Positions 19,522-38,883 of a stretch of 64,000 nt of DNA are shown piece after piece. The notes beneath the pieces are model-generated. The model ran no database searches, had not been told where the DNA came from, and was given only the letters and a program-made list of their open reading frames with translations. The stretch is from Alphaproteobacteria bacterium (GTDB lineage: Bacteria > Pseudomonadota > Alphaproteobacteria > Rickettsiales > SXRF01): the NCBI GenBank assembly GCA_025360345.1, contig JANYCJ010000137.1, positions 768 through 64,767 of the forward strand. Direction: 5' to 3'. Position numbers and translations under genes: made by a program. The first letter of the stretch is position 1; every line of letters starts with the position of its first letter.

Positions 19522-22257
19522 ATGGGCCAACCCAGCAGCCTGCCAAAAGAACCGCCGCTAAACCCTACCGATTTCGGATCGGTGTTCCGGGCTGCACCCG
19601 GTATGTACCTGCTTCTGCTGCCGGATGCGCCTAAGTATACCATTATTTCCGCAAGCGAAGCTTTTTCGCAGGCGATGCTGGTTAACGGCGCGGATATCGA
19701 ATCCAAAGGTATGTTCGATGTGTTTTTCCCTGAGGAAGCCAGTGAAAAGCCGGTCTCTATGGCGCTGCGCTCTTCGCTGCAACAGGTGCTGCACGGGCTG
19801 AAATCGCATGAGATGGAAGTGCAGAAATACGATTTGCACCGCAAGACCAGCAGTGGCACGGTGATAGAGGAAAAATACTGGAGCCCGCTGAATACGCCGG
19901 TGTTCGACATAGACGGAAAGCTGCAATACATCCTGCACCGCGTGCTCGACGTGACTGAGAAAATGACACTGGAAAAAGAGCGTGAGCGGTTTTTTACGCT
20001 GGGCACGGATATGCTGGTGGTGGCAGGCTATGATGGGTATTTCAAAAAAGTGAACCCCGCGTGGGAAGAAACGCTGGGCTGGACGCAGGAAGAAATGCTT
20101 AGCAGGCCGTGGATTGATTTTGTGCACCCCGATGATGTGCAGGCCACCCATGACGCCAAGGACAAGCTGGAAGCCAATATTCCCATCAAGAATTTTGAAA
20201 ACCGTTACCGCTGCAAAGACGGCAACTACCGCTGGCTCAGCTGGAAGACACATCCCTACCCGTTGGAAAAGCTGATTTACGGCGGGGCGACAGATATTAC
20301 AGAGCGCAAGAAGACCGAAGAGTCGCTACGCGCCAGCGAAAGAAAGTTCCGCCAGCTGGCCAATGCCATGCCGCAGGTGGTGTGGACCGCGATGCCCGAC
20401 GGGCAGCTGAATTACGTTAACGAACGCTGCTTCGAGTATTCCGGCACGCTGCGCACGGAAAATAACACCGTGGACTGGGCACCCATTATCCACCCTGAGG
20501 ATTTGCAGCATACGCTTTTCGTATGGAGCAACTGTGTGGCGTCGGGCAAGCCGTACGAAGTGCTCCAGCGCATCTTCCACGCGGCCAGCGGACACTACCG
20601 CTGGAACCTGACCAGGGCGCTGCCCGTGCACGACGAACTGGGCAACGTGACCAAATGGTATGGCACCAATACGGATATTGAAGACCAAAAAAGTACGGAA
20701 GACGCCTTACGCAAAAGTGAGCAATTCAACCAGAGCATTATCGACAGCAGCCCGGACTGCATTAAAGTGCTGGATATGGACGGCCATCTGCTTTCCATGA
20801 ATGAGGAAGGCTGCCGACAGATGGAGGTGGATGATTTCTCGGTCTGCATTAATAAACCGTGGATCGGCTTCTGGGACGGGGTGGAAAGGGCTGCTGCGGA
20901 ACAGGCGCTGCAGGCTGCGCGCAGAGGGGAAAAGGGTTTTTTCCAGGGTTTCTGCGCCACCATGAAAGGCACGCCGCGCTGGTGGGAAGTGATCGTAGCG
21001 CCGATACGGGGCAACGATGGAAAAACGGTGCAGATCTTATCCGTTTCACGCGATATCACCGAGCGCAAGAAGCTGGAAGATGCGACAAGGGACGCGCGGG
21101 AGCTGGCAGAAGCGGCAAATATCGCCAAGAGCGAGTTCCTTGCCAATATGAGCCATGAAATCCGCACACCGATGAACGCGGTGATCGGGCTGGCCAATAT
21201 CCTTGCCATGAGTCAGCCGTTATCGGCGCGGCAGAAAGAATACATCCAGACGTTGCAGATGTCGGCAGACAGCCTGCTTGCGCTGATTAACGACTTGCTC
21301 GATATTTCCAAGATCGAGGCACGCTCGATCGAGCTTGAGCATATTCCGTTCAACCTGAAGCAACTGCTGAACGAAGTGATTAGCATGATGTCTATGCGCG
21401 CTAAGGAAAAGGGACTTGAATTCAGCGTGCTGGGCGATTGCAGCCCGGATTATGTGGTAGTGGGCGACCCCACGCGGTTGCGCCAGATTTTGCTCAACCT
21501 TTGCAGCAACGCCATTAAATTTACGGAAAAAGGTGGGGTTTATGTGAGCATTGACTGCCACGCATCGGGGACGCAGGGTGTGGAAAATGTGTCTATCGCG
21601 GTGCGCGATAGCGGCATTGGTATTTCTCCCGAGCACCAGGAATCCATTTTCCATAAATTTATCCAGGCGGATTCAAGCATCACCCGCAAATATGGCGGGA
21701 CAGGGCTAGGGCTGGCCATTACCAAGACGCTCACTGAAATCATGGGCGGAACAATCTGGCTGACCAGCGCGGTGGGCAAAGGCTCCACCTTTACCGTGAA
21801 ACTGCCGATGAGGGTGGGCGGCGGCGAGGTGCAGGCCGAGGCGAATGTGCCCTTCGCCGCCGAGGCGTTTACCAAGCAAAGCTTCCGCGTGCTGCTGGTG
21901 GAGGATTATGCGGCCAATGTACTGGTGGCGGGAAGCTACCTTGAGCAATTCGGCTATGCTTATGACGTGGTGGATAATGGTTATGACGCGGTGGAAAAGG
22001 CCAAGTCTGGACAATATCTGGCCATATTGATGGATGTGCAAATGCATGGCATTAACGGGTTTGAGACGACACGGCTGATACGGGCGCATGAAAAATCAAC
22101 CGGGATGCCGCGGGTGCCGATCCTCGGCATGACCGCACATGCGCTGATGGGCGACCGGGAACGATGCCTCGAGGCAGACATGGACGATTACCTATCCAAG
22201 CCTTATAACCCCACGGAGCTGGAGCGAAAGCTGGCGGCTTACCGTGAAAAAAACTAG
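19522..22257 (+). CDS. Hybrid sensor histidine kinase (multiple PAS, HisKA-HATPase, C-terminal REC)
   Basis: 911 aa. H-box: [19 protein letters not shown]/G boxes: [19 protein letters not shown] and [23 protein letters not shown]…[11 protein letters not shown]…SKP. Confidence 0.95.
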   Translation: [911 protein letters not shown]

Positions 22258-22757
22258 CCCTCTTTTGCCGCTTTAAGGGCTGCTTCCGCCCGGACGAGAC
22301 CGATCTGGTCAATATTACCTTTGCTATCCACCAGCTGGTTTGCAGTAACGGCGCCGACAAGGGCGGCCACTTCGCGCTTTACTTTTTCGACATCGGTGGT
22401 GAGTTCGCTTACTGTGGCGCCGCCCCCTCCCCCGCTTTTCGGCGGTGGGGGTGGTGGCGGAGGCGGTGGCAGCGGGGCCGCGTTTTTATCCCCGGGTTTC
22501 GCGGGCTGGCCAGACGGGGGCTGTGCACGCGTGGCGGGAGTGCCTGCGGTTGCTGGGGAGAGAGTTTGCGCATCGGCTATAGATTGCGCGGGGGCCGTAA
22601 GATCCAGCTGCACAGCGGGGCCATGGGTGTCGCCCGTGGGTGCGGAGGCGGCGGGCGGGACGGTGGCGGCCTGTTTGGCGGCGGCTTCTTCAAGTTGCTG
22701 CAGGAGCGCGGTGGCTGCCTGGGTGGTGAGAGTGGTGGGTGGTGTGATACTGCTCAT
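22254..22757 (-). CDS. Hypothetical Ala/Pro/Thr-rich protein with poly-Pro and poly-Gly tracts and a helical C-terminal domain
   Basis: 167 aa. The sequence …NAAPLPPPPPPPPPPKSGGGGGATVSELTTDVEKVKREVAALVGAV… has an AAAGG element about 10 nt upstream of the ATG. The opposite-strand ORF 22321..22788 looks like an artefact. No family was recognised. Confidence 0.45.
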   Translation of the reverse strand: MSSITPPTTLTTQAATALLQQLEEAAAKQAATVPPAASAPTGDTHGPAVQLDLTAPAQSIADAQTLSPATAGTPATRAQPPSGQPAKPGDKNAAPLPPPPPPPPPPKSGGGGGATVSELTTDVEKVKREVAALVGAVTANQLVDSKGNIDQIGLVRAEAALKAAKEG

Positions 22758-22890: not shown

Positions 22891-24456
22891 TTATTCGGGC
22901 ATTACGTTGGCCAGCAGTGAGGTGACCTCTTCTAACTTCACAGGTTTGGTTAGGTGGTGGTTGAAGCCCGCCTCCTTTGCATCCCGGCGGTCTTTTTCCT
23001 GTCCCCAGCCGGTCTGGGCGATCATGACGGTTCTGGCGAAGCGCGGATCTTTGCGGAGGGTGCGGCACACTTCATAGCCGTTCATGCCGGGCAGGCCTAT
23101 GTCGAGCAGGATGACGTCGGGGTTCATATCCTGCGCTACTTTCACAGCCTCGATACCATCATGGGCGAGTATAGGCTGGTAGCCGATCAGCTCCAGCATC
23201 CAGCCGGTGGTTTTGGCGGAGGCGATATTATCATCCACGACAAGGACGCGCAGTGAGTGGTTTTCCCCGGTGGCGGGGGCGGCGGGCTGCGGGGCCGCGG
23301 GATGAGCGTGCATCTGCCCGGCCAGCGGCAGGCGGAAAGTGAAAATACTGCCTTTGCCTAGGCCTTGGCTTTCGGCAATGATGGCCCCGCCATGCATTTC
23401 CACCAGCCGCTTGACCAGCGCAAGGCCGATGCCGAGGCCGCCCTGCGAGCGTTCGAGGCTGCGGCCTACCTGCGTGAAAAGCTCGAACACTTTGGGCAGC
23501 ATGTCTGCGGGAATGCCCAGACCATTATCGGTGACGGAGACGATGACATCACTATCTTCCATATGGGCGGTCAGGTTTATCTTGCCGCCTTCGGGGGTAT
23601 ATTTAGCCGCGTTGTTGAGGAGATTGCTGATAATCTGGGAGAGGCGGGTGAGGTCGGCATCAAGCCAGATGGGGGTTTCGGGCACGTCCATGGTGAAGCT
23701 GTGCTTTCCGGCTTCGATCAGGGGAGTGCTGGCCTCCAATGCAGCCTGAATAGCGGATTGCAAGGTAATGGCGTCTTTGCGCAGGTCAATCTTGCCCTGG
23801 CTCACGCGCGAGACGTCGAGCAGGTCGTCGATAAGGCGGACGAGGTGGTTGAGCTGGCGATCCATCATGCCGCGCACCTCGTCGGACGTTTCGCCGGTGG
23901 GCTGCATTCGCAGCACCTGAAGGCCGTTGCGGATGGGGGCGAGCGGGTTCCTGAGCTCATGGGCGAGGGTTGCGAGGAATTCGTCCTTGCGGTGATCCGC
24001 TTCGCGCAGGGCATCGGCATACTGGCGCAGCTCGTCGCGCTGCTGGGCAAGCTGCTGCTGCTGGCGGTTCAACTCAAAAAACACCCCGGCCTTGCTGCGC
24101 AGGATATCCGGCTCGATGGGTTTATGAATGAAGTCCACGGCGCCGGCTTCATAACCGCGGAAACGGCGCTGGCGGTCAGCGCTGCCAGCGGTGAGGAAAA
24201 TGATGGGCACGCGGCGGGTGCGCTCGGTGCCGCGCATGAGTTCGGCCAGTTCAAAACCATCCATCCCGGGCATTTGCACGTCCAGCAAGGCAAGCGCCAC
24301 ATCGTATTTCAGCAATAGCTCCAGCCCTTCCCTGCCGGAGCGGGCCTTAAGCAGGACGAGGCCGTCGCGGCGCAGCAGCGCTTCAAGGGAAAGCAGGTTT
24401 TCCTCAAGGTCGTCTACCAGCAGAAAATAAACAGGCTGGGGCGTGGTGGCGGTCAT
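22891..24456 (-). CDS. Hybrid histidine kinase, REC-HisKA-HATPase-REC
   Basis: Start taken at MTATTPQPVYFLLVDD (ATGA overlap with the cheB stop). H-box: FLATLAHELRNPLAPI. G boxes: DNGLGI and GGLGIGLAL. The C-terminal REC is VLVVDDNIASA…LDIGLPGMNGY…TKP. Confidence 0.9.
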   Translation of the reverse strand: MTATTPQPVYFLLVDDLEENLLSLEALLRRDGLVLLKARSGREGLELLLKYDVALALLDVQMPGMDGFELAELMRGTERTRRVPIIFLTAGSADRQRRFRGYEAGAVDFIHKPIEPDILRSKAGVFFELNRQQQQLAQQRDELRQYADALREADHRKDEFLATLAHELRNPLAPIRNGLQVLRMQPTGETSDEVRGMMDRQLNHLVRLIDDLLDVSRVSQGKIDLRKDAITLQSAIQAALEASTPLIEAGKHSFTMDVPETPIWLDADLTRLSQIISNLLNNAAKYTPEGGKINLTAHMEDSDVIVSVTDNGLGIPADMLPKVFELFTQVGRSLERSQGGLGIGLALVKRLVEMHGGAIIAESQGLGKGSIFTFRLPLAGQMHAHPAAPQPAAPATGENHSLRVLVVDDNIASAKTTGWMLELIGYQPILAHDGIEAVKVAQDMNPDVILLDIGLPGMNGYEVCRTLRKDPRFARTVMIAQTGWGQEKDRRDAKEAGFNHHLTKPVKLEEVTSLLANVMPE

Positions 24457-25022
24457 GATGCTTCTACTTTCTGCAGATATGCTGCGATTTCCGCAAGACT
24501 GAGGCGGAGCGCCGTAGGACATGCCTTCAGGGCGGCCTCAGGCATGGGGGTTGACTGGGCGGTGGCGGGGTCCTGCACCAGGGCAGTGCCGCCTGCCGCC
24601 ACAATGGCTTTCAGGCCTTTTGCGCCGTCTTCATTGGCGCCGCTTAACACGATGCCGATAAGCGACTCACCGTAAGCGTCGGCAGCGGTTTCAAAAAGTA
24701 CATCAATTGCGGGACGGGAAAATAATACAGGCTCTTCGCTGGACAGTGACAACGACTGGTTTTTTTCTACCAGAAGATGGTAATCGGGCGGGGCGAAGTA
24801 GACAGAGGCTGGTTCTATGGCCACTTTGTCCTCAGCTTCAATGACCTTTACCTTGCACTTGTATTGAAAGAGGTCTGCGAGGATGCTTTTCTTGTCGGGA
24901 GGGACATGCACCACCACCATGACTGGCAAGGGGAAATCACCGGGGAGCGCGGGAAGGATGGCCGTAAGCGCTTCGACCGCGCCGGCGGAGGCTCCGATAA
25001 CAACAGCACGGGCAACGGTCAT
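24453..25022 (-). CDS. cheB: CheB-type protein-glutamate methylesterase, catalytic domain only (no REC)
   Basis: 189 aa. The sequence VVIGASAGAVEAL…VVVHVPP…SRPAIDVLFETAA…IVLSGANEDGAKGL carries the Ser-His-Asp esterase core. It begins directly with the catalytic domain. Confidence 0.9.
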   Translation of the reverse strand: MTVARAVVIGASAGAVEALTAILPALPGDFPLPVMVVVHVPPDKKSILADLFQYKCKVKVIEAEDKVAIEPASVYFAPPDYHLLVEKNQSLSLSSEEPVLFSRPAIDVLFETAADAYGESLIGIVLSGANEDGAKGLKAIVAAGGTALVQDPATAQSTPMPEAALKACPTALRLSLAEIAAYLQKVEAS

Positions 25023-25849
25023 TTGCTTCCCTTTTTCTGATAGAGGCGCTCCTCGCGGGAGAATTCGCTGAAATCATCGGCATTGGCGCTGAAGCGCAGG
25101 CTTTCCTTGCTACCAAGGCCGAGAAACCATTTGCGGATGAGGGAATCGCTGAACAGGCCAATAGCGCGGTCCTGCAATTCGCGGTCAAAATATATCAGGA
25201 CGTTGCGGCAGGAGATGAGATGCATTTCAGCGAAGACCGCGTCGCTGGCGAGGCTGTGGTCGGAGAACACGACACGCCTGCGCAGGGATTTATCGAAGGT
25301 GGCGTGGCCGTAGGCGGCAGTATAGTAATCGGAGAGCGACGATTTGCCGCCGGATTTCTGGTGATTTGCGGTGAAAAGCTGGATGCGGTCAAGATCGTAA
25401 ACGCCGGATTCAGCCTTGCGCAGGGCTTCGGTATTAATGTCGGTGGCGTAAAACATGGTGCGGTCTTCGAGCCCCTCTTCGCGGAAAAGAATGGCGAATG
25501 AATAGAGCTCTTCCCCGGTGGAGCAGCCCGCAACCCATATTTTGAGCGAAGGATAGGTGCGCAGATGGGGAACCACGCGCTCGCGGATGGTTTTGAAATA
25601 CTGCGGATCGCGGAAAAGCTCGCTGACCTGCACGGTGAGATAAGAGAGTAGTTCGGTAAAAATGGCGGGCTCGTGCAGCACGCGGTCCTGCAACTGCGAA
25701 TAGCTGCGGCAGCCGAATTTTTCCCGGGCAAGAGAGAGGCGGCGCTTGACCGAGGCCATAGAATAACCACGGAAATCATAGTGATACTTCTGGAAAAGGG
25801 CTTCCAGAAGCAGCTTCAGCTCCATATCATCGTTACGGTTATCCAACAC
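25019..25849 (-). CDS. cheR: CheR-type protein-glutamate O-methyltransferase
   Basis: 276 aa. Motifs: FRDPQYFKTIRERVVPHL, KIWVAGCSTGEELYSFAILF and ATDINTEALRKAESGVY. The gene overlaps cheB by 4 nt. Confidence 0.92.
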   Translation of the reverse strand: MLDNRNDDMELKLLLEALFQKYHYDFRGYSMASVKRRLSLAREKFGCRSYSQLQDRVLHEPAIFTELLSYLTVQVSELFRDPQYFKTIRERVVPHLRTYPSLKIWVAGCSTGEELYSFAILFREEGLEDRTMFYATDINTEALRKAESGVYDLDRIQLFTANHQKSGGKSSLSDYYTAAYGHATFDKSLRRRVVFSDHSLASDAVFAEMHLISCRNVLIYFDRELQDRAIGLFSDSLIRKWFLGLGSKESLRFSANADDFSEFSREERLYQKKGSK

Positions 25850-25858
25850 GGCTGCACC

Positions 25859-28800
25859 TCACCGTGGCATCCATACGCGGACGAGCGAAAGCAGCTTTTC
25901 CACATCCAGTGGCTTGGCCATATAGTCGTTTGCCCCCGCCTCCAGGCAGCGGTCCTGGTCGTCTTTCATGGCCTTGGCGGTGAGCATGATGACGGGCAGT
26001 TTTTTCCATTCTGGGCGCTTGCGGATTTCGCGAGTGGCAGTGAGGCCGTCCATTTCCGGCATCATGACATCCATCAGTACGAGGTCGATGGTCTTGTCGG
26101 GTGAGTCCATGCTGCTTTGAAGGAAGTCTAGCGCCTCGCGGCCATTGCGGGCAATTTCCACGATGGCGCCGCGCGGCTCGAAAATAGAGGTGACGGCGTA
26201 GACGTTTCGCACATCATCTTCGACCACTAGTATGCGGCGATTTTCCAATATGGCGTCGCGGTTGCGGGCCTGCTCCAACATGCGCTGCTGCTCGGCGGGA
26301 AGCTCGGCCACCACCTGATGCAGGAAGAGCGTGACTTCGTCGAGCAGGCGCTCGGGCGATTTGGCACCTTTGATGATGATGGACTTGGAATAGCGGCGCA
26401 GGCGCTGCTCCTGCTCTGCAGAAAGTTCACGCCCGGTATATACAATGACGGGGGGGAAGGAATAAGCGTCTTCACGGCTCAGGGTTTCGAGCAGCTCGTA
26501 GCCCGAGGCGTCGGGCAGGGAAAGGTCGAGCACCATGCAGTCGAACGTTTGTTCCTTTAGCCGTGCGAGCGTTTCGCTTACCGTGCCCACGCCCACCGTT
26601 TGCACATCATGGGAGGCGAGCAGGCGGCGGACGCTATCTTGCTGCACGGGATCATCTTCCACGATCAGCACACGGCGCATACGCTGCGATAAGCGGGTTT
26701 CCAGCTTCCGGAATGTATCGGCGAGGTCTTCGCGCTTGACGGGCTTTAGCATGTAACCCACGGCGCCGAGCGAGAGGGCGGTCTGCGCATAATCGCCAGC
26801 GGAGACGACATGCACGGGGATGTGGCGGGTGCGGGCGTCGTGTTTGAGGCGGTCGAGCACAGAGAGGCCTGAATTGTCGGGCAGGCCAACATCGAGCACC
26901 ACGGCGCTGGGCAGGTATTGCTGGGCTAGGGCCAGGGCTTCTTCAGCGGTGGTGGCGACAATGCACTGGAAGTCCAGCTCATGGGCAAGGTCGTTTAGTA
27001 TGCGGGCGAAAGGCACATCATCTTCTACGACGAGGATGACGCGGCTGTTGCCAGTGAGTTTCTCGCGGTCATCTTCCACACGATGGCGGCGCATGTAGTT
27101 TGCGGGCATGGCGGGTTTTTCCACGGGGGGCATTTCCACGGGCTCGAAGGGGGGGCGCTGGGCGACCAGCTCCGGATCGAAATCTTTCGGGATGGTGAGG
27201 GTAAAGTGGCTGCCCTGCCCCGGCGTGCTGGTAAGCTCGATCTGGCCGCCGAGCAGGCGGGAAAGCTGGCGCGAAATGGACAGGCCCAGCCCGGTGCCGC
27301 CATATTTGCGGCTGATGGTGCCATCTGCCTGGCGGAAGGCTTCGAAAATTGCCTGTTGCTGCTCCAGCGCAATGCCGATGCCGGTGTCACTCACGGTGAA
27401 GGCGACCTTATCCCCCGGGAGGAACCTGGCGATGATTTCCACGCTGCCCTGCTCGGTGAATTTCAGGGCATTGGATATAAGGTTCTTTAATACTTGCTCA
27501 AGGCGCTGGCGGTCGGTGTCGATATAAGTGGGGGAGCCGGGGGCGGCGGTTGCTTTGAACACGAGGCCTTTTTGTTTCGCCATCGGCTCGAAGCTGTGGG
27601 TGAGGTCTTTCATCAGGCGTTCCAGAGAAACCTGCTCGGGGCGGATTTCCATGTGCCCGGCTTCAATCTTGGAGAGGTCGAGGATGTCATTGATAAGCGA
27701 GAGGAGGTCATTGCCGGAGGACTGGATGGTCTGGGCGAACTTAACTTGCTCCTCGGACAGGTTTCCTGCCGGGTTATCGGCCAATAACTTGGCGAGGATA
27801 AGGGAGGAGTTGAGCGGGGTGCGAAGCTCATGGCTCATATTGGCGAGGAAGTCTGATTTATACTGGCTGGCCTGTTCCAGCTCGCTGGCCTTAGCCTGCA
27901 CGGCAGCTTTTGCGCGGACCAGATCATCCTTCTGGTTTTCGAGGATCTGGGCGGTTTCTTCGAGCTGGGAGTTGGTCTGCTCCATTTCGGCCTGCTGTAA
28001 TTCAAGGCGCGCCTGCGATTCTTTGAGCGCCCTGCTTTGCTCTTCGAGCTCTTCATTGGATACGCGCAGTTCTTCGCTTTGGGTTTGCAGCTCTTCGGAC
28101 TGGCGCTGGGTTTCTTCCAGCAGGTTCTGGAGGTGGGCACGGTAATTGGCGGATTTCACTGCCGTGGCGATGGTTGTGTTGACGCTATTGAGCAGTTCCA
28201 TGCTGCGCTCATCGACAGGATTCAGGAAGCCGATTTCCATTAATGCATTCACTTCGCCGTCCATGGCGATGGGAGCTACGATGAGGTAGCGCGGCTTATG
28301 ATGGCCCATGCCGCTGCCGATGGTCAGGTAGCCTTCGGGCACATCCCGCAGCAGGAAGGTTTTCTTTTCTTTCACCGCCTGCCCCAGTAGGCCCTCGGCG
28401 GTGTCAAAACGATCAGGCGTGCGGCCGGAAGAGCTGATGCCGTAGCTTGCGACCCGGCGGAAGTCCTTGCCTTCTTTTACATATAGCAATGCCGCGCTGG
28501 CGCTACAGTACCCGCAGATAAAGCTCAGGATGTTGTCGCCGAGTGGTTCCATGCGTTGCTCACCCACCATGGCAGTGCTTAAGCCCACCTGGCCAGATTG
28601 CATCCATTCCTGACGCTTGCGGGTGAGCAAATTGCGGCGCACAAGATGCGCTACCGCACCGGAGAGCAACACTCCTAAAAACCCGGTGAGCAAGCCGCTG
28701 ACGATGGCGATATGGTAGGCCGCCTGCATTTCCACAAGGCGCTTGGAGCGCAGCGAGGATTCTTCATCGCGCATGGCAGCAATCTGGGTACGGACAATGT

Positions 28801-29275
28801 CCATTTCCGCTTTGCCGCGGTCAGTGATGACTAGATCGCGGGCGAGGTTAAAACCTTTGGTTCGGCGCAGCTCAATGGATTCGGCAAGCTCAGCCAGCTT
28901 GGCGTGTATATGATTGCGAAGGGCAGGCACGCGTTGCTGCTGGGCCTCGTTATCCTTTGTGAGGGAATCAATCGCAGCGATCGTGTTATCGAGTTCGGTG
29001 ATGGCGATGTTATAGGGGGTGAGGTATTTTTCATCCCCGGTAATCAGGAAGCCGCGCTGACCGGTTTCGGCATCCTTGGTCTGGGAAATCAACTGCTCCA
29101 GCTTCAGTATCACCTCATGGGTGTGGGTCACCAAAGACGCATCGTTGCTGATAATGCGTATGTTCCAGTAGGATATAAACGAGCTGGCGACAAAAAACAA
29201 AACAACAGCCACCATGCCGAAAGTGATGGGGAGTTCGGGCTTGATATTACGTGGGCTGGCCTGATTTGCAGTCAT
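25859..29275 (-). CDS. Hybrid sensor kinase: TM-CHASE3-TM-GAF-coiled coil-HisKA-HATPase-REC-REC-REC
   Basis: 1138 aa. CHASE3 signature: VTHTHEVILKLEQL…DAETGQRGFLITGDEKYLTPY. A GAF-like segment follows. H-box: FLANMSHELRTPLNS. G boxes: DTGIGI and GGTGLGLSI. Three successive receiver domains are present (VLVVEDDVPFA…, VLIVEDDPVQQ…, ILVVEDDVRNV…). Confidence 0.93.
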   Translation of the reverse strand: MTANQASPRNIKPELPITFGMVAVVLFFVASSFISYWNIRIISNDASLVTHTHEVILKLEQLISQTKDAETGQRGFLITGDEKYLTPYNIAITELDNTIAAIDSLTKDNEAQQQRVPALRNHIHAKLAELAESIELRRTKGFNLARDLVITDRGKAEMDIVRTQIAAMRDEESSLRSKRLVEMQAAYHIAIVSGLLTGFLGVLLSGAVAHLVRRNLLTRKRQEWMQSGQVGLSTAMVGEQRMEPLGDNILSFICGYCSASAALLYVKEGKDFRRVASYGISSSGRTPDRFDTAEGLLGQAVKEKKTFLLRDVPEGYLTIGSGMGHHKPRYLIVAPIAMDGEVNALMEIGFLNPVDERSMELLNSVNTTIATAVKSANYRAHLQNLLEETQRQSEELQTQSEELRVSNEELEEQSRALKESQARLELQQAEMEQTNSQLEETAQILENQKDDLVRAKAAVQAKASELEQASQYKSDFLANMSHELRTPLNSSLILAKLLADNPAGNLSEEQVKFAQTIQSSGNDLLSLINDILDLSKIEAGHMEIRPEQVSLERLMKDLTHSFEPMAKQKGLVFKATAAPGSPTYIDTDRQRLEQVLKNLISNALKFTEQGSVEIIARFLPGDKVAFTVSDTGIGIALEQQQAIFEAFRQADGTISRKYGGTGLGLSISRQLSRLLGGQIELTSTPGQGSHFTLTIPKDFDPELVAQRPPFEPVEMPPVEKPAMPANYMRRHRVEDDREKLTGNSRVILVVEDDVPFARILNDLAHELDFQCIVATTAEEALALAQQYLPSAVVLDVGLPDNSGLSVLDRLKHDARTRHIPVHVVSAGDYAQTALSLGAVGYMLKPVKREDLADTFRKLETRLSQRMRRVLIVEDDPVQQDSVRRLLASHDVQTVGVGTVSETLARLKEQTFDCMVLDLSLPDASGYELLETLSREDAYSFPPVIVYTGRELSAEQEQRLRRYSKSIIIKGAKSPERLLDEVTLFLHQVVAELPAEQQRMLEQARNRDAILENRRILVVEDDVRNVYAVTSIFEPRGAIVEIARNGREALDFLQSSMDSPDKTIDLVLMDVMMPEMDGLTATREIRKRPEWKKLPVIMLTAKAMKDDQDRCLEAGANDYMAKPLDVEKLLSLVRVWMPR

Positions 29276-31353: not shown

Positions 31354-32547
31354 ATGTCCAAGAGTACGCTGCCAAGCCCTAAAGAACGCGCCGGTATATT
31401 AAATGAAAGACGCAACCTGAAAATGGCGCGCTCTGCACATGCCTATGTGCGCGGCAATACGCTTAATTTTTATGAATGGCTGGAATCGGTGAGTGGCAAA
31501 GCGGTGCCGCAAGGCCCGGCAGTATGGATCTGCGGGGATTGCCATATGAGCAACCTGGGGCCGCTGGCCGACACCAAGGGCCATATTCGTATCCAGATAC
31601 GCGACCTAGACCAGACGGTGATCGGCAACCCGGCGCATGACCTGATCCGGCTGGGACTTTCGCTGACAAGCGCGGCGCGGGGTTCGGATTTGTCGGGCAT
31701 TATCACGGTGAGAATGTGCGAGCAGCTGATGGAAGGCTATGAGCAGGCCTTTGCTAAGGATGCGCAGGACGAGATTGAGCTGCCTGAAGCAGTGGAAAAG
31801 GCGATGAAGACGGCGATCAAGCGCAAGTGGAAGCACCTGGCGCGGGAGCGCATCAAGGATGAGCGGCCCAGCATCCCGCTTGGGAACACGTTCTGGCCGC
31901 TTTCCAAAGATGAGCGCGAGGAAATCGTGGCGCTGTTCACAGAGGAAAAAGTGCGCAGGCTGGTGACCTCGCTGCGCTCGCGCGATAGTGACGCCAGCGT
32001 GGAAGTGCTGGACGCGGCCTACTGGGTGAAGGGATGCAGCTCACTCGGCAATTTACGCTACGCAGTGCTGCTGGGCGTGGGCGAAAAGGGCGAGGAGCAA
32101 TGCCTGATAGATATCAAGGAGGCGGTGAAGGCCGTGGCGCCGGCCTATGACAACGTGAAAATGCCGCGCAACAACGCCGAGCGGGTGGTGGAAGGCGCGT
32201 GGCATCTTTCCCCGGCGCTGGGCGAGCGGATGCTGGCGGCGAGCCTGCAAGGGCGAAGCGTGTTCATGAGGGAATTGCTACCGCAGGATCTAAAGCTGGA
32301 TATTGAGCACCTGACGCCGGATGAGGCCATGAAAGTCTCAAAATATTTGGGTGCAGTCGTGGGTAAGGCACATGCGCGCCAGATGGATGAAGAGACGCGC
32401 GCCGGCTGGCACAGGGAGCTGAACGCCAACCGCTCCAAAACGCTTAATGCCCCGAGCTGGTTATGGCGCAGCATCGTGGAACTGATCCTGAACCATGAGG
32501 GCGCTTATCTGGAACATTGCCGCAAATATGTGACGCTTGGCACTTAG
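31354..32547 (+). CDS. DUF2252-family protein
   Basis: About 397 aa from the ATG at 31354. The sequence …AHAYVRGNTLNFYEWL…VWICGDCHMSNLGP…IRDLDQTVIGNPAHDLIRLGLSL… matches my recollection of the DUF2252 core (CGD.H..N.G…D.D…DL.RL). Confidence 0.7.
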   Translation: MSKSTLPSPKERAGILNERRNLKMARSAHAYVRGNTLNFYEWLESVSGKAVPQGPAVWICGDCHMSNLGPLADTKGHIRIQIRDLDQTVIGNPAHDLIRLGLSLTSAARGSDLSGIITVRMCEQLMEGYEQAFAKDAQDEIELPEAVEKAMKTAIKRKWKHLARERIKDERPSIPLGNTFWPLSKDEREEIVALFTEEKVRRLVTSLRSRDSDASVEVLDAAYWVKGCSSLGNLRYAVLLGVGEKGEEQCLIDIKEAVKAVAPAYDNVKMPRNNAERVVEGAWHLSPALGERMLAASLQGRSVFMRELLPQDLKLDIEHLTPDEAMKVSKYLGAVVGKAHARQMDEETRAGWHRELNANRSKTLNAPSWLWRSIVELILNHEGAYLEHCRKYVTLGT

Positions 32548-35500
32548 GCCGGGGTGTTGAGCAGGAGAGCGATTTTCTGCCGCAGCTCCTCGGGATTGAA
32601 GGGTTTTGCGATGTAATCGTCCATACCTACGCCGAGGCAGCGCTCACGGTCTCCTGACAAGGCATGGGCAGTCATGCCAATGATGGGCAGATGATGCCCC
32701 TGCCCTTGCTGTTTTTCCTGCTCGCGAATGAGGCGGGTGGCTTCTAGGCCGTTCATACCGTGCATCTGCACGTCCATGAGCACCATGGCGAAGGACTCTT
32801 TTTTAATTTTTTCCAATGCTTCCAAGCCATTATGCGCTACTTCGCAGCGATAGCCGAATTCTTCGAGGAAGGCGGTGGCGACCATGACATTAGGTGCGTA
32901 GTCCTCGACCAGCAGGATGCGGGGCAGCAGATGATGGGCATTACTATTTTCCCTGCCGGAAGTCTCTTCTATTTCGGCTTCGGGGCGCGCATCCACTACC
33001 TGCAGGGGCACGGTGATTGCAAAACGAGACCCTTTGCCGGAGGTGCTGGTGACACTGATTTCACCGCCCATGATCTCGACCAGCGTTTTGGAAATGGCAA
33101 GGCCAAGGCCTGTGCCGCCGTATTTACGGTTGATTGAGGTATCTGCCTGCACGAATTTGTGGAAGATAGTGCCCAGTTTAGCCGTGGGGATGCCGATGCC
33201 GGTATCTTCCACGATCATGGTTACGTTTTCGACAGTGGGCTCGGCGGTTGGCTCGCAGGTGAATGAGACCAGCACGCTGCCGTGCTCCGTGAATTTTATG
33301 GCATTGCTGCACAGGTTCATGATGACCTGGCGGATGCGGGTGGGGTCGCCCAGATAGGTGCGGCCTTCGATACAGTGGGCTTCGCTGCGGAAGGAAAGGT
33401 GTTTTTCACGGGCACGCACTGACATGATACTGATGACTTCATGCATGAGTTGGTCAAGGCTGAAGGGAATTTTTTCCAGCTCGACGCTGCGCGACTCGAT
33501 TTTTGAAATATCAAGCAGGTCATTGATGAGGGAGAGCAGCGAGTCCGCAGAGAGTTGCAAGGTGCTGATAAATTCGACCTGACGGGGGGTGAGAGGCTGG
33601 CTCAGGGAAAGGATGTTGGCCAGCCCGATCACGGCATTCATGGGAGTGCGTATTTCATGGCTCATGTTGGCGAGAAACTCTGTTTTGGCAATGTTAGCGG
33701 CTTCGGCCTGCAGTTTTGCTTCTACGTTGTCCTGAATGTCGGTACAGGTGCCATACCAGGTGGTAATGCAGCCCTGAGGGTCGCGGATGGGCACACCACG
33801 GGTTTTGAACCAGCGGTAGGCGCCATCATGCCTACGGATACGGTATTCAAGGTTATAGTCCGCCCTGCCCTGCACGGCATTGGTCCATGCCTGCATAACG
33901 ATGTCGCGGTCTTCGGGGTGCAGCCACTGCACCCATGCAAAACCGAGCAGGTTTTCTACCGGCTCGCCAGTATATTGCTGCCAGCGGGAATTCATATATT
34001 CGCACTGGCCGTCTGAGGCGCGGCAGGTCCAGAGCAATTGCGGCATGGCATCTGCGAGGTTGCGCCAGCGCTCTTCACTGGCCTGAAGTGCGATGGCAGT
34101 TTCGCGCTCAGCAGTGATATCTATACCTACGCCGGGGAAGCGCACCGGATTGCCATTTTCATCGAACTGCACTTCCCCGCGCACCGACAGCCAGCGCACC
34201 ACGCCCGGCTTGGGGATAACACGGTATTCATCTACGTAGCGGCCACCTTCTTTAAGCACCTTAGTAATATGGGTGCCGATGCGGTCATAGTCTTCAGGAT
34301 GAATGGATTTGACTACGCGGCCAAGCTCCACACCCTGCTTCGCCTGCTCCGCGGTCAGGCCAAACAGCGCGCCAAAGCGTTCATCGGCTGTGAAGCGGTC
34401 ATTGACCACATCCCAGTCCCAGATACCGAAATCATGGCTGGCGGCGAGCGCGAGGCGCTGACGCTCTTCGTTTTTCTTTATCGCCGCTTCCTGCGCGCGT
34501 GCCTCTGTAATATCACGGGTGGTGCCGGCCACGAATTCTACTTCACCCTCCTCGTTGAGCACCGGCACAAAAATGTAATCATAGATACGACGGCCATTGG
34601 TTCCCGCGAATGGAACCTCGCCGCGAATAGGCTTTTTGGTTTTGACCACGGTGTCTATTTCGTCGTGGTGCATCTGGACATGCCAAGGCTCATATCCTAA
34701 TTCGGGGAAGCCTTTGTTCGTTGCCTCGCCACGGGTTTTTCCAAACATGGCAAGCAGCGACTCATTCAGGTATACAAACTTGTAATTCAGGTCGAAAATA
34801 TAGACGAAGTCCGGGGTGCTGGAGAGAATGGTTTCATACAGGCGGCGCTGCTTTTCATTAGCCTGAACGAGGCGGCCATTTTCAAGGCCGATGGCGGCCT
34901 GGCTTGCGATGGCTTTAGCGATACGCTCGGAGCGCTCAGTAAAAATTCCAGGCTGCGAATGGCCAAAAAACAAGCCCCCCAGCACTTCGCCGCCTTTAGT
35001 TACCACCGGGACTGCGAGGTAGCTTTTGACCGGGATATGGCCCTCGGGCATACCATGATAGGGGCTGTTCTTGCCATAGCGGGGATCGGTTGTGATATCA
35101 TCCGAACGTACCACGCCGGTGCCGTCGAAGGTGGGCGCAAAAATCTGGGTTTTACGCGGCATCGGGAAATCGGCGAAAGCCTGCAGCGGCGCACCGGACA
35201 GGGTGTAGAGCATGTATGATTCGCCGGTGGCGTTCTGGCTATTGTAAAAGAATGCGCCAAACTCCGCCTTGGTAAGTTCGGTGGCGATGTCGGTGGCATG
35301 TTGGACAGGTTCATGAGGATTCGATATGCGTGAGAATGCCTGACCAGTCCGGTAAATGGCATCCAGCATTTCCATTTCTTCACGGCGCTGGCTTTCACTG
35401 CGCTTACGTTCGGTGACATCGAGCAAAGTGCCCATGAGCCTGCCGTTATGGCCGCCGAATTTTTGCACGCGCCCCCGGGCGCTTACGCAGTAAAGGCGCC

Positions 35501-36203
35501 CGTCCCGCTCAACACGGTACTCAATTTTCAATCCCAAATCCGAAGATTGCTCAAAAACTTCAAGAAACTGCAACTCCGCCTGTGTGCGGTCTTCTTTATA
35601 AATTTTTTCAAGGAATATCGCGAAGGTTATGTCTTGCCCCGCCGCAAGGCCCATAATTTCTGCGCTGCGTTCGGAGCAATAGAAACGTTTTGCCCCGGGT
35701 TCATAACTCCACACGCCCAACTGAGAAGCTTCGATGGCCAGGCGATATTCTTCCTGCTTTTCCTGCAGATTTTGACTCAGGCGGAAGCGTTCGATCGCAT
35801 TATACACGGTGCGGACGAGCGGCTCTGGCTGCATACTTTCCTTAGTAATATAATCCTGAGCACCCAGAAAAATGGCTTCATTCGCCACTTGATTGCTCAA
35901 CTCCTCGTCGAGGCCAGAACCGGTGAGCATGATGACAGGAAGCGGTATGGTGCCGCCGCGGACCTCTTTCAGTGCCTTGAGGAAGTCAATGCCGTTGCGC
36001 AACGGCATGTGCATATCAAGGATCAGACAGTCGGGCAGCGGGTTTTTCTGGAGCCAGGCTAGTCCCTCTTCAGCGGTACTGCACTCGTTGAACTGGTATT
36101 TCTGGAATTTATTGGAACGAAGCTTGCCACGCACTAATGCACGGTCATCGGGATTATCATCGACAAGTAAAACTTCAAGTACACGGCGTGAAAGAGCGTT
36201 CAT
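32544..36203 (-). CDS. Giant hybrid sensor kinase: REC-PAS-GAF-PAS(x3)-HisKA-HATPase-REC
   Basis: Start taken at MNALSRRVLEVLLVDD (ATGA overlap with the upstream RR stop). H-box: FLANMSHEIRTPMNAVIG. G boxes: DTGIGI and GGTGLGLAI. The C-terminal REC is ILLVEDYAPNV…MDVQMHGMNGL…AKP. Confidence 0.93.
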   Translation of the reverse strand: MNALSRRVLEVLLVDDNPDDRALVRGKLRSNKFQKYQFNECSTAEEGLAWLQKNPLPDCLILDMHMPLRNGIDFLKALKEVRGGTIPLPVIMLTGSGLDEELSNQVANEAIFLGAQDYITKESMQPEPLVRTVYNAIERFRLSQNLQEKQEEYRLAIEASQLGVWSYEPGAKRFYCSERSAEIMGLAAGQDITFAIFLEKIYKEDRTQAELQFLEVFEQSSDLGLKIEYRVERDGRLYCVSARGRVQKFGGHNGRLMGTLLDVTERKRSESQRREEMEMLDAIYRTGQAFSRISNPHEPVQHATDIATELTKAEFGAFFYNSQNATGESYMLYTLSGAPLQAFADFPMPRKTQIFAPTFDGTGVVRSDDITTDPRYGKNSPYHGMPEGHIPVKSYLAVPVVTKGGEVLGGLFFGHSQPGIFTERSERIAKAIASQAAIGLENGRLVQANEKQRRLYETILSSTPDFVYIFDLNYKFVYLNESLLAMFGKTRGEATNKGFPELGYEPWHVQMHHDEIDTVVKTKKPIRGEVPFAGTNGRRIYDYIFVPVLNEEGEVEFVAGTTRDITEARAQEAAIKKNEERQRLALAASHDFGIWDWDVVNDRFTADERFGALFGLTAEQAKQGVELGRVVKSIHPEDYDRIGTHITKVLKEGGRYVDEYRVIPKPGVVRWLSVRGEVQFDENGNPVRFPGVGIDITAERETAIALQASEERWRNLADAMPQLLWTCRASDGQCEYMNSRWQQYTGEPVENLLGFAWVQWLHPEDRDIVMQAWTNAVQGRADYNLEYRIRRHDGAYRWFKTRGVPIRDPQGCITTWYGTCTDIQDNVEAKLQAEAANIAKTEFLANMSHEIRTPMNAVIGLANILSLSQPLTPRQVEFISTLQLSADSLLSLINDLLDISKIESRSVELEKIPFSLDQLMHEVISIMSVRAREKHLSFRSEAHCIEGRTYLGDPTRIRQVIMNLCSNAIKFTEHGSVLVSFTCEPTAEPTVENVTMIVEDTGIGIPTAKLGTIFHKFVQADTSINRKYGGTGLGLAISKTLVEIMGGEISVTSTSGKGSRFAITVPLQVVDARPEAEIEETSGRENSNAHHLLPRILLVEDYAPNVMVATAFLEEFGYRCEVAHNGLEALEKIKKESFAMVLMDVQMHGMNGLEATRLIREQEKQQGQGHHLPIIGMTAHALSGDRERCLGVGMDDYIAKPFNPEELRQKIALLLNTPA

Positions 36204-36622
36204 GCACCCGCCATAATGGTCACGGCATCGCACAGCCAATAGGTGGCGATGCGTTGGACAGTTTCATGGAAAACCGGAGTTTCCAGAGGCTTTACATGGA
36301 ACGCACTCGCACCTGCGCGGTAGGAATTAAGGATGTCGTTAGGATTGGTGGAGGTGGTAAGCACCACTAGCGGCACAAGATTGAGCTGCGGATGGTTCTT
36401 GAATTTTTTGATAAGGCTCATGCCTCCTTCGCCCGGGATGTTGAGGTCCAGAAGTACGAAGGCGGCTTTTTCGTTATTGGCCTCTAGCCAGCGGCAGGCC
36501 GCTTCGGTGTCGGTCAGGTGTACCACGTTATTTTTTAGGCCAAGCTTTTTCAGCCCGTGGCAAATCATATCGAAATCTTCTTCATTATCCTCGACCACCA
36601 GTAACTTTAGATCCCTAAGCAT
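36200..36622 (-). CDS. Single-domain response regulator (phytochrome-associated, Rcp-like)
   Basis: 140 aa with the REC motifs LLVVEDNEEDF…LLDLNIPGEGG…VVLTTS…HVKP. The gene overlaps bphP by 8 nt. Confidence 0.9.
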   Translation of the reverse strand: MLRDLKLLVVEDNEEDFDMICHGLKKLGLKNNVVHLTDTEAACRWLEANNEKAAFVLLDLNIPGEGGMSLIKKFKNHPQLNLVPLVVLTTSTNPNDILNSYRAGASAFHVKPLETPVFHETVQRIATYWLCDAVTIMAGA

Positions 36623-38882
36623 GAGAGTTCTCCGAGTTAAGAGTGAAGTAAAATACCGTGCCTATTCCGCTTTGCGGAGTTTCCACCCAGATGCGACCAT
36701 TATGCTGTTCAACGATTTTCTTAACGATGGCTAAGCCTACTCCACTGCCGCCGCCGAACTGGTCTTTGGCGTGCAAGCGCTTAAAAATAGAAAAAATGGC
36801 AGAGCGATTTTCCGGTGCTATGCCGATGCCGTTATCGGATACGAAGTAGGCATTTTTAGCCATGTCGAACCCTATGTCAATCACAGGTATTTCTTTGTTA
36901 TATTTCACAGCATTACCGATTATGTTCAACCATAATTCACGCAACCGCTGGGGATTTCCTTTTGCAGGCGGCAGCGAGTTCATCATACGGATTTCAGGCT
37001 TTAGTTCCGCGCGGCTGGCGCGAAGGATGTCTATGGATTCTTCTACGAGCTCCCGCATGTCAACTGGTTCGGGGATGAAGCTGCCGCGCCCCAACCGTGA
37101 GAAATGCAGCAGTGACTCAATCAGCGAGTCCATGCGTTTTGTGAGGCGCAGCAGGCTCTCGCTACGTTTTTCGGATTCTTCATCCTGACGCTGCGTAGCA
37201 TCTTCTTTCAGGTAATGGGCATAATGGTAAATGCCACGCAGGGGCTCGCGCAGGTCGTGGGAGGTAACATAGGCGAAAGCATCCAGCTCCTCATTACTGG
37301 CGGCAAGTTCGCGGTTAAGGCGCGAGACATTTTCGCTGGTGGCCACCACCACTTCCATAATAGCAAGGCGAAGGCGGCGGGCAGCCTCGACTTCAAGGGC
37401 TTTCCACGGCAAGGAGTGGCCGCGCAGCTTTTCCTGCCAGAGGGCGAAGGAGGAGCGCGGCATTAGCCGCTCGCCGCCGGGGCTGTCCACCACTTTTTTG
37501 CTGTAAGGGTCACCGGCCCAATTCACAGTTTGAACCACTTCACCACGGAACCATAAAATGAGGCGGTCATTACTGCGGGAAATGGGCACGGCTAAAAGGC
37601 CGCTGGCGGTGTCTTTGCAGATAGACGCAGCAGGCAGGCGCTCTGAAAGGGCATGGGTATGAAGGATTTCGGTGCCTAGCGGGGCGGTGCTAAATGATTG
37701 CTTCACCCATTCGGCAATCGCTTGCAACATGCCCTGATTGGGTACTGCACCCTGGGTGTGCCATTTGCCGTTTTGCAGCAGTGCCACGCCGTCTGCCTCC
37801 ATAAAGCCTGACAGGCCCAAATTGATAAGTTCGGGCAGTTCACGGCCTTCGGCGAGCATTTGCTCCATCAGCCCCTGAGCCGATTCTTCAAGACGGGCGC
37901 GATAGCCGGCGAATTCGTTTTGCTCTATCGCTGAAAGTTGCAATGAGGCAGTTTGAGCCAGAAGTTCGCACACGGCACGCAGCGGCCAGGGAATGATTTT
38001 GGGAGAGTAATGATGGCAGGCGACAAGGCCCCAGAGCTTTCCCTCCACAACGATGGAAAGGGTAAAGGCCATTTCCACGCCCATGTTTTTCAAATAGTCC
38101 GTGTACATGACACTTGCCCCGCGCAGAAAGCTGTATGTCATGTCCAGCGGCTTTTGGGTGATAGGGTTTACCAGCGGTATGATTTCCGACTGGATATAGG
38201 AGACGGAGGGAAGCGGGCGCACCCAGATTTTGCGGAAGATGTCGCGGGCAGGCTGGGGAATATCTTCCGAGGGGTAGTGCAGGCCCAGATAGGGGTGCAG
38301 GTCTTCACGCTTGGCCTCGGCATAGACCTCACCGCTTAAATCTTCCATGAAGCGGTATATCATGACACGGTCGAGGCCGGTGAGCTTGCGGATTTCGGTA
38401 GACAAGGTGCGGCAAAACTCCCTGAGACCGGGAGACTTCTGGAGCCGGGCAATAATTCGGTTTGCGTCGCTATAGGCCTGTTCACGGCTTATGGACATGG
38501 GGATGTCGGCGTCTTCACATTCCATGATAAGCACACCGTTATGCAGGTGCAGAAGAGCATCGAGCTTTTTATCATGCGGCGTGAAGCTGAAAAGGTAGCG
38601 TGGATTGGTTTCGATACTGTCTTCTTCCAACGCTGTGCGCAGGAGCGTGGCATTTTCCTCGCCCACGAGCGCCATGAGGGGCTGGCCCACCACATCGCCG
38701 GGGGCTTTATTCAGCCATTCCTGAGCATTGTCGCTAACCTGAATAACGGTGAGGTTCTGCGGGTTCAGGGCAAGCAGGCAGCCAAAGGGCTGGATGCAGC
38801 CCGGGATATGCACGGGCTCACGGTCGCAGTTGGTAAGGGTAACTTCGTTGTTCTTCAGGGAATAAGCGTAGGAGAAACCCAT
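36615..38882 (-). CDS. bphP: Bacteriophytochrome histidine kinase
   Basis: 755 aa. The N-terminus TLTNCDREPVHIPGCIQPFGCLL carries the biliverdin-binding Cys context. PAS-GAF-PHY follows, then the H-box YVTSHDLREPLRGI and an HATPase domain (DNGIGI, GGSGVGLAI). Confidence 0.93.
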   Translation of the reverse strand: MGFSYAYSLKNNEVTLTNCDREPVHIPGCIQPFGCLLALNPQNLTVIQVSDNAQEWLNKAPGDVVGQPLMALVGEENATLLRTALEEDSIETNPRYLFSFTPHDKKLDALLHLHNGVLIMECEDADIPMSISREQAYSDANRIIARLQKSPGLREFCRTLSTEIRKLTGLDRVMIYRFMEDLSGEVYAEAKREDLHPYLGLHYPSEDIPQPARDIFRKIWVRPLPSVSYIQSEIIPLVNPITQKPLDMTYSFLRGASVMYTDYLKNMGVEMAFTLSIVVEGKLWGLVACHHYSPKIIPWPLRAVCELLAQTASLQLSAIEQNEFAGYRARLEESAQGLMEQMLAEGRELPELINLGLSGFMEADGVALLQNGKWHTQGAVPNQGMLQAIAEWVKQSFSTAPLGTEILHTHALSERLPAASICKDTASGLLAVPISRSNDRLILWFRGEVVQTVNWAGDPYSKKVVDSPGGERLMPRSSFALWQEKLRGHSLPWKALEVEAARRLRLAIMEVVVATSENVSRLNRELAASNEELDAFAYVTSHDLREPLRGIYHYAHYLKEDATQRQDEESEKRSESLLRLTKRMDSLIESLLHFSRLGRGSFIPEPVDMRELVEESIDILRASRAELKPEIRMMNSLPPAKGNPQRLRELWLNIIGNAVKYNKEIPVIDIGFDMAKNAYFVSDNGIGIAPENRSAIFSIFKRLHAKDQFGGGSGVGLAIVKKIVEQHNGRIWVETPQSGIGTVFYFTLNSENSHA

Positions 38883-38883
38883 A

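Follow-up and report, generated by a model that had tools for sequence, protein, structure and literature searches.

The 64,000-nucleotide stretch of alphaproteobacterial DNA analysed here (the window; contig JANYCJ010000137.1 of assembly GCA_025360345.1, Rickettsiales, SXRF01) encodes a hybrid sensor kinase whose linker between GAF domain and kinase core carries three consecutive glutamate-rich heptads, and whose gene is followed by genes for a CheR-type methyltransferase and a CheB-type methylesterase. The heptad tract is most likely the local copy of a conserved element, here called the EEL array, which is built of units of the form x-[S/T]-[N/S]-E-E-L-[Q/E/R] and has one surface Glu-Glu pair per heptad. 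In the genomes sampled, such arrays are strongly associated with cheR and cheB, either in the same polypeptide or in the neighbouring gene, and we consider with moderate confidence, from the sequence evidence below, that the array is the substrate of these enzymes, which makes it a candidate methyl-accepting site outside the chemoreceptors.

The EEL array of the window kinase

The kinase gene occupies 25859..29275 on the reverse strand, and its open reading frame (ORF) of 1138 amino acids contains, in order, a CHASE3 domain, a transmembrane segment, a GAF domain, a long helix, HisKA, HATPase_c and three REC domains (Pfam matches: CHASE3 at amino acids 46–179, GAF at 245–373, HisKA at 473–540 and HATPase_c at 588–697). 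The same protein is annotated, with cheR downstream, on NCBI assembly GCA_043763375.1. The initial annotation of the window had pointed to a tract at 28016..28123 (reverse strand), and this span does encode amino acids 385–420 (LLEETQRQSEELQTQSEELRVSNEELEEQSRALKES); only the trailing Q of the sequence quoted there, amino acid 421, falls one codon outside. Within the tract lies a strict array of three heptads, QSEELQT, QSEELRV and SNEELEE (amino acids 392–412; 28040..28102, reverse strand), in which [SN]EEL begins at amino acids 393, 400 and 407, exactly seven apart as had been claimed, and no further EEL triplet occurs in the kinase. The Glu-Glu pairs of these units, 394/395, 401/402 and 408/409, are the candidate methyl-accepting residues. 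The H-box (FLANMSHELRTP; 27815..27850, reverse strand) is within HisKA, the codon of the phospho-accepting His482 being at 27830–27832 (reverse strand), and the placing of the tract between GAF domain and H-box agrees with the Pfam boundaries.

The linkers of homologous kinases that resemble CfcA of Pseudomonas putida (see below) are made of one to four copies of a 28-residue, four-heptad super-repeat, SEAxLQx-QQEELRx-xNEELEE-QxxxLxx (P0234, P0226, P0272 and P0217 among the homologues), and the linker of the window kinase has two copies, the first intact and the second degenerate. The degenerate copy of four heptads (SQARLEL, QQAEMEQ, TNSQLEE and TAQILEN; amino acids 420–447, 27935..28018, reverse strand) retains the heptad phase, its EE pairs having become AR, AE and SQ, and it aligns with the canonical second EEL blocks of L028, L033, L042, L067, L153, P0234, P0226 and P0272.

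In 200,000 composition-preserving permutations of the linker (amino acids 377–472) three consecutive phased EEL units were never obtained (0/200,000), and two were obtained 709 times. The three array units have just 9–12 of 21 nucleotides in common, which indicates that there was no recent duplication of DNA and that the repeat is maintained at the protein level. In an alignment of 61 orthologues (47–66% identity) residues E394, E395, E401, E402, E408 and E409 are conserved in at least 90% of the sequences, and L403 and N407 occur in all of them. E, Q and L abound in the linker, as they would in a functionless low-complexity repeat, but an origin of this kind, by chance or by recent tandem duplication, is excluded to near certainty by the shuffles, the nucleotide divergence and the conservation of the EE pairs in the orthologues. 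The phased array is present in only one of the six sensor kinases of the window, the one adjacent to cheR. That kinase has both features by which we delimit the EEL-array family, namely three or more heptad-phased E-E-[LM] units, each after S, T or N, and a CheR, usually with a CheB that lacks a REC domain, fused or adjacent.

The initial annotation also took the units to continue a longer coiled coil, which is borne out. Leu, Met or Val fill one heptad position without interruption from L382 to L466, and AlphaFold2, given the alignment of 61 sequences, predicts a single continuous alpha-helix at amino acids 356–500 (27776..28210, reverse strand; helix 121–265 of the modelled segment), with a predicted local distance difference test score (pLDDT) of 92–97 over the tract. 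This predicted 145-residue helix extends from the last helix of the GAF domain through the array into DHp helix 1, which carries His482. The tract is therefore not "right next to" the histidine helix, as had been stated, since its last EE pair (408/409) precedes His482 by 73 residues, but the two are parts of the same predicted helix. Length differences among orthologues in the linker are of 7 or 14 residues, that is, multiples of seven, and with a helix that is unbroken up to the H-box this means that a change in the array can pass mechanically to the kinase core. Formation of a coiled coil by the tract is thus supported by the model, and we propose that it is a parallel one in which one of the two core positions is taken by Leu and the second by Asn or Ser; given this mixed core and two negative charges per heptad, it should be only marginally stable. 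A sequence search of the PDB returned designed or unrelated coiled coils and no solved structure that contains the module; a match there to a T. maritima chemoreceptor was not significant (E about 0.5).

The cheR and cheB genes and the four-gene cassette

The cheR gene (25019..25849, reverse strand; CheR_N and CheR domains of a protein-glutamate methyltransferase) starts 10 bases past the kinase stop codon, and its end overlaps by 4 bases the cheB gene (24453..25022, reverse strand), which encodes a protein of 189 amino acids that is a methylesterase catalytic domain only (CheB_methylest at 7–183) and has no REC domain. The last gene of the cassette (22891..24522, reverse strand) encodes a REC-HisKA-HATPase_c-REC hybrid kinase with no EEL array. 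The window CheR keeps the residues that align with R53, R98, E129, D154 and Y235 of Salmonella CheR, and the window CheB keeps the Ser, His and Asp that align with S164, H190 and D286 of Salmonella CheB, in the numbering of the CheR and CheB structure papers; with these catalytic residues intact, both enzymes are probably competent.

The order kinase, cheR, cheB, REC-kinase is repeated in loci L001, L002, L003 and L254, and the cassette is found on conjugative plasmids of Allorhizobium, Rhizorhabdus and Neorhizobium and in a further NCBI assembly. Its CheR is 75–82% identical to proteins of Gemmata, Singulisphaera, Chthoniobacterales, Fimbriimonas and Asticcacaulis, an identity that spans Planctomycetota, Verrucomicrobiota and Alphaproteobacteria and is unusually high across phyla; together with the plasmid location this suggests frequent horizontal transfer and strong constraint. 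In a preliminary neighbour-joining tree (four canonical outgroup CheRs only and no support values) the array-linked CheRs, both the cfcB-type and the fused ones, cluster together and apart from the four canonical chemotaxis CheRs, and the CheR domains of the fusion proteins described below are sister to the window-type CheR. Neither the 64-kb window nor the 120 motif loci listed in the scan described next yielded a homologue of CheW or of the signalling domain of methyl-accepting chemotaxis proteins (MCPs), which leaves no alternative substrate nearby.

We note that the cheB ORF shares about 70 bases with the gene that follows, if the latter is taken as its longest ORF, and that the succession of an esterase and then a REC domain across these two genes is the opposite of that within canonical CheB, where REC precedes the esterase. 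Regulation of CheB by the downstream REC-kinase is conceivable.

Linkage of EEL arrays to CheR and CheB

A DNA pattern scan for EEL-x4-EEL-x4-EEL in one genome per species (185,579 species) yielded at least 120 loci, which were taken as 8-kb blocks and annotated with hidden Markov models made from the window proteins. Among the matches listed 118 motif ORFs were classified, and 81 of these 118 have CheR or CheB fused or adjacent: 43 carry CheB and CheR in the same polypeptide as the motif, 25 carry CheR without CheB in the same polypeptide, and 13, which are CfcA-like GAF-array-kinase-REC proteins, have cheR or cheB in a neighbouring ORF. Among the other 37, where neither gene was seen, about 17 end at the edge of the 8-kb block on the side where cheR is expected, about 7 are unrelated acidic proteins and about 12 are signalling proteins. 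Among the hosts are Bacteroidota, Cyanobacteriota, Actinomycetota, Desulfobacterota, Nitrospirota, Planctomycetota, Chloroflexota, Acidobacteriota, Verrucomicrobiota, Campylobacterota, Bacillota, several classes of Pseudomonadota and one archaeon, and at least 12 phyla are represented altogether.

As a control, 120 kinases were drawn from metagenome contigs by their H-box alone (ANM[ST]HELRTP), and 8 of these have cheR or cheB in the block. The difference from the motif ORFs among the matches listed (81/118 versus 8/120; odds ratio 31, Fisher p=6e-25) is the enrichment for which the initial annotation had proposed a test, and it rejects an equal frequency of the motif with and without cheR/cheB. 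Seven of the 8 positive control kinases themselves bear EEL-type heptads, often with fewer than three strict consecutive units, and the eighth is of the type of the downstream REC-kinase. When the control loci with both flanks visible are divided by their heptads, cheR or cheB accompanies 5 of 6 kinases with two or more phased units and 3 of 34 with one or none.

The fusion proteins were first reached by a tblastn search of CheB against plasmids in which matches annotated as CheR were kept. The first four obtained in this way (from Deinococcus, Spirosoma, Roseicitreum and Burkholderia) each have 3–6 phased [ST][NKE]EEL units near amino acids 680–720, and with the 68 CheR-bearing fusions among the scan matches listed they confirm the suggestion, made in the initial annotation, that EEL-rich heptads are found in PAS kinases fused to CheB and CheR. 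Searches with other queries stayed closer to the window genes. With the tract as query tblastn against plasmids masked the EEL repeats, aligned only the latter half of the linker and thus recovered orthologous cassettes alone; the 70-amino-acid tract, a low-complexity query, gave just 14 candidates and short fragments by word index; and the window CheR returned nothing but stand-alone CheRs almost identical to it, with fusion proteins absent. Amino acids 383–447 matched 471 protein cluster representatives at E<=0.001, mainly fragments of the GAF-array-kinase family, and no fusion protein was among the representatives inspected.

Anatomy and conservation of the fusion proteins

The fusion proteins, which we take to be the "CheB-CheR-PAS" sensors of KEGG K13924 type, have the layout CheB_methylest, CheR_N, CheR, PAS, array, PAS_10 and further domains, and neither Pfam nor NCBIfam has a model that covers the array itself in them. 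Their arrays have 6–13 units and a consensus that opens with EELETSN EELQxxN and closes with EELxTVN. Small members include a CheR-PAS-array-PAS protein of 651 amino acids at L029 and a protein of 921 amino acids at L013. In an alignment of 39 full-length members (27–54% identity, from L013–L125) all of the columns outside the CheR domain that are invariant are in the array (E705, E712, E713, E719, E720, E733, E734, E741, S737, N739 and N746), and the PAS domains contain no invariant residue. In interior units of the arrays the first Glu is conserved at 95%, the second at 97% and the core Leu at 88%, so that conservation is higher in the surface glutamates than in the core; where Glu is replaced in these units, it is most often by Gln. 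In the five central units of the fusion proteins the glutamates reach 95–100%.

The domains that follow the array are HisKA in 9 of the 39 proteins, HWE_HK in 4, HisKA_2 in 3, GerE in 2 and SpoIIE in 1, and about 20 have none; 16 of 39 thus end in a kinase, and PAS_10 is present in 36. With outputs so variable, the constant core of the family is CheR plus array, usually with PAS_10, and the kinase lies outside this core; as a family name, "CheB/CheR-fused kinase" does not reach far enough, since fewer than half of the fusions end in a histidine kinase.

HmpF, a coiled-coil component of a chemotaxis-like system, also appeared in the domain searches. One locus (L029, 2837–4789, forward strand) has a sub-threshold match over its EEL array to the NCBIfam model of HmpF, the cyanobacterial pilus-motility taxis protein, and CfcA-like linkers carry a precomputed Pfam match called "HmpF (weak)". 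Some homologues match PF28019, which was considered as a dedicated array family and rejected, because it is this same "HmpF (weak)" and a generic coiled-coil match. Real kinship of EEL arrays to HmpF may nevertheless exist.

Comparison with other signalling helices and gene clusters

The unit found in the window, x-S/T-N-E-E-L-Q/E, is the same in the CheB/CheR fusions. The latter differ in having the enzymes in cis, in having 6–13 units versus 3, and in the site of the array, which is between PAS and PAS_10 about 200 amino acids past CheR in the fusions and between GAF and HisKA in the window kinase. The signalling helix, or S-helix, which Anantharaman, Balaji and Aravind reportedly described in 2006 as a linker of sensor kinases, is similar in forming a continuous helix from sensor to DHp in which indels of 7 or 14 residues keep the heptad phase. 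The window helix is much longer at 145 residues, is strongly acidic, has a polar core residue in almost every heptad and is specifically linked to CheR/CheB; the comparison concerns these general features.

In domain content (CHASE3, GAF, HisKA/HATPase and receivers) and in its place at the head of a cluster that also contains cheR, cheB and another hybrid kinase gene, the window kinase resembles CfcA of P. putida (cfcABCDE) and BmsA of P. alkylphenolica, which are CHASE3/GAF hybrid kinases that control c-di-GMP (cyclic di-GMP), biofilm and motility (PMC4951495, PMC8175716). We infer from architecture and synteny that the window gene belongs to a cassette of the CfcA/BmsA type. The neighbourhood of a kinase, CheR, CheB and a hybrid kinase has been described for P. 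putida (cfcABCDE) and P. brassicacearum (PMC4951495, PMC8175716), and a role in chemotaxis of the CheR and CheB of the cfc cluster is stated to be ruled out in PMC4951495, which cites Garcia-Fontana 2013 on this point. The two papers leave CheR and CheB as unexplained neighbours and mention neither the heptad motif nor methylation of the kinase (PMC4951495, PMC8175716). In the openly accessible literature that was searched, we found no description of the motif or of CheR methylation of such kinases.

Proposed mechanism and its alternatives

The methylation helices of MCPs such as Tar of Salmonella and E. coli carry the sites Q295, E302, Q309 and E491. In Salmonella Tar the first three of these belong to three E-[EQ] pairs at a spacing of seven, and the window array is similar in its Glu-[Glu/Gln] surface pairs at the same spacing (TEQ-QASALEE-TAASMEQ in Tar, QSEE-LQTQSEE-LRVSNEE in the window) and in being accompanied by the methyltransferase CheR and the esterase CheB. 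The window pairs, on their predicted helix, have what characterises MCP sites in general, that is, adjacent [EQ][EQ] pairs, heptad-spaced, on one face of a coiled coil. The setting is different: Pfam recognises neither an MCP signalling domain nor a HAMP domain in the window kinase, a hairpin is absent, there is no CheA or CheW partner (neither CheW nor an MCP accompanies the arrays in the window or the motif loci listed), and the window CheB lacks the phosphorylatable receiver domain of its MCP-system counterpart. MCPs form an antiparallel four-helix bundle, whereas the window array is predicted to be part of a single parallel helix that leads into DHp. As a precedent for a substrate other than an MCP, the case of PhoP and CheR (PMC8546571) is weak only, since CheR acts there mainly on R112 and not on an EE pair.

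By the mechanism that we propose, the dedicated CheR encoded downstream would esterify the Glu pairs of the array with S-adenosylmethionine as donor, and the REC-less CheB would hydrolyse the methyl esters. Esterification would neutralise up to six negative charges per chain, and this loss of charge would stabilise the helix between GAF and His482 or shift its register and so reset the output of the kinase, giving adaptation or memory inside a two-component kinase. Both the methylation of the glutamates and its effect on signalling are put forward here conditionally. Extended to the family, the proposal is that EEL arrays form a further class of methyl-accepting module that does without chemoreceptors, a tunable acidic coiled coil in which each chain offers from 3 to about 13 Glu-Glu sites to be written by a dedicated CheR clade and erased by a REC-less CheB, and that they would confer graded adaptation or memory on two-component kinases and other PAS-linked outputs; we regard the case for this wider proposal as evenly balanced.

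Several observations weigh against methylation of the array. The likeness to MCP sites claimed in the initial annotation holds for the geometry but extends neither to the flanking residues nor to the hydrophobic core. The MCP consensus, attributed to Alexander and Zhulin (2007) and to Perez et al. (2006), is [ASTG]-[ASTG]-x-x-[EQ]-[EQ]-x-x-[ASTG]-[ASTG], and where it calls for four small residues the window units have Q-R/T-Q, Q-T/V-S and R-V/E-Q; the array consensus of the fusion proteins satisfies three of the four. In the window array the core hydrophobic residue comes after the EE pair, and in Tar it comes before. Gln at the Glu positions is scarce (6/540), unlike in many chemoreceptors, and no methylation data for any member of the array family were found in the literature searched. 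Arrays also occur in a Paenibacillus CHASE3-GAF-kinase-REC protein with unrelated neighbours (L026, 2002–4674, reverse strand) and, with no cheR or cheB in view, in an archaeal PAS-GAF-PAS kinase of Methanobacteriaceae (L035, 3828–6857, reverse strand), an SBP-HD-GYP protein of Pseudothermotoga (L017, 5140–7350, reverse strand) and a CBS-PAS kinase of Nostoc (L015, 217–4521, forward strand), which indicates that an array can exist, and presumably work, without an adjoining dedicated enzyme pair. Finally, a single ancient origin of "CheR plus array" could inflate the number of associations that are counted as independent.

The array might instead be a docking or tether site for CheR, CheB or both, comparable to the NWETF pentapeptide on Tar and Tsr, or a dimer clamp of the fusion proteins, the methylated residues lying elsewhere, in PAS or PAS_10, a receiver or the partner REC-kinase. 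Linkage and conservation, which show a functional coupling to CheR, fit binding as well as they fit catalysis. PAS_10 comes close to the array in constancy (36/39 fusions), and the flanks of the array deviate from the MCP methylation consensus. A tether is redundant, however, where the enzyme is covalently attached, and the fusions, which need none, carry the longest arrays (6–13 units), which makes docking the less likely role. The conserved Glu-Glu pair at heptad spacing has the geometry of the Tar substrate, and PAS domains make poor candidates for the modified region, with no invariant residue in the 39 fusions and with GAF rather than PAS_10 beside the array in CfcA-type kinases. We consider this explanation improbable.

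We think it just as unlikely that the array is a purely structural, polar-zipper signalling helix, characteristic of one lineage of sensor proteins, whose co-occurrence with CheR and CheB reflects shared ancestry of a mobile cassette, the enzymes acting on chemoreceptors or other proteins encoded elsewhere. Such a helix would account for the arrays that have no adjacent cheR or cheB (L026, L035, L017, L015 and L156). The mobility of the cassette, with its conjugative plasmids and its CheR 75–82% identical across phyla, fits as well, and the N-x-x-L heptads resemble designed parallel coiled coils, the best PDB match being 8p4y. Shared ancestry is harder to reconcile with a linkage that is found in at least 12 phyla and outlasts fusion and fission, the exchange of GAF for PAS, and outputs that range from kinase to LuxR-HTH to SpoIIE to none; a purely structural role does not agree with exposed glutamates that are more conserved than the core leucines. 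No MCP or CheW is encoded at any of the 120 motif loci listed, and many of the array hosts belong to what we take to be non-flagellated lineages without chemoreceptors (Streptomyces, Flavobacteriia, Sphingobacteriia). Methylation of the array by the linked CheR, and its reversal by CheB, remains the reading that we prefer.

Other features of the window

The window is unusually dense in sensor kinases, six having been detected. A kinase ORF of 755 amino acids followed by an ORF of 198 amino acids (36615–39480, reverse strand) was read by eye as a bacteriophytochrome and heme oxygenase pair, and this putative pair adjoins a REC-kinase-REC hybrid of 1231 amino acids (32544–36239, reverse strand). 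Just past the cassette, an ORF of 167 amino acids (22254–22757, reverse strand) encodes a low-complexity sequence rich in Ala, Pro and Thr that includes 11 prolines in a row; its sole Pfam match is below threshold, and the ORF is overlapped over nearly its full length by an antisense ORF.

Significance

Methylation by CheR and CheB is the textbook case of sensory adaptation and is known almost only on chemoreceptors, and there are thousands of genomes with copies of CheR and CheB that have no chemoreceptor partner, such as the third P. putida pair (in the cfc cluster) and the "CheB/CheR fusion protein" family. Reversible glutamate methylation by these enzymes is a known process; its application to a coiled coil that is not part of a chemoreceptor is what is proposed here, and the EEL array is supported as a candidate for it. 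The array gives such CheR and CheB proteins a sharply conserved element as their likely substrate and, in the window kinase, six named residues (E394/395, E401/402 and E408/409). If the proposal is true, adaptation by reversible glutamate methylation also operates within ordinary two-component signalling, where it would account for the tuning of the CfcA-type kinases that govern c-di-GMP and biofilm formation, and the same module would serve LuxR-type regulators and SpoIIE phosphatases as well, in at least a dozen phyla that include lineages regarded as being without flagella and chemoreceptors.

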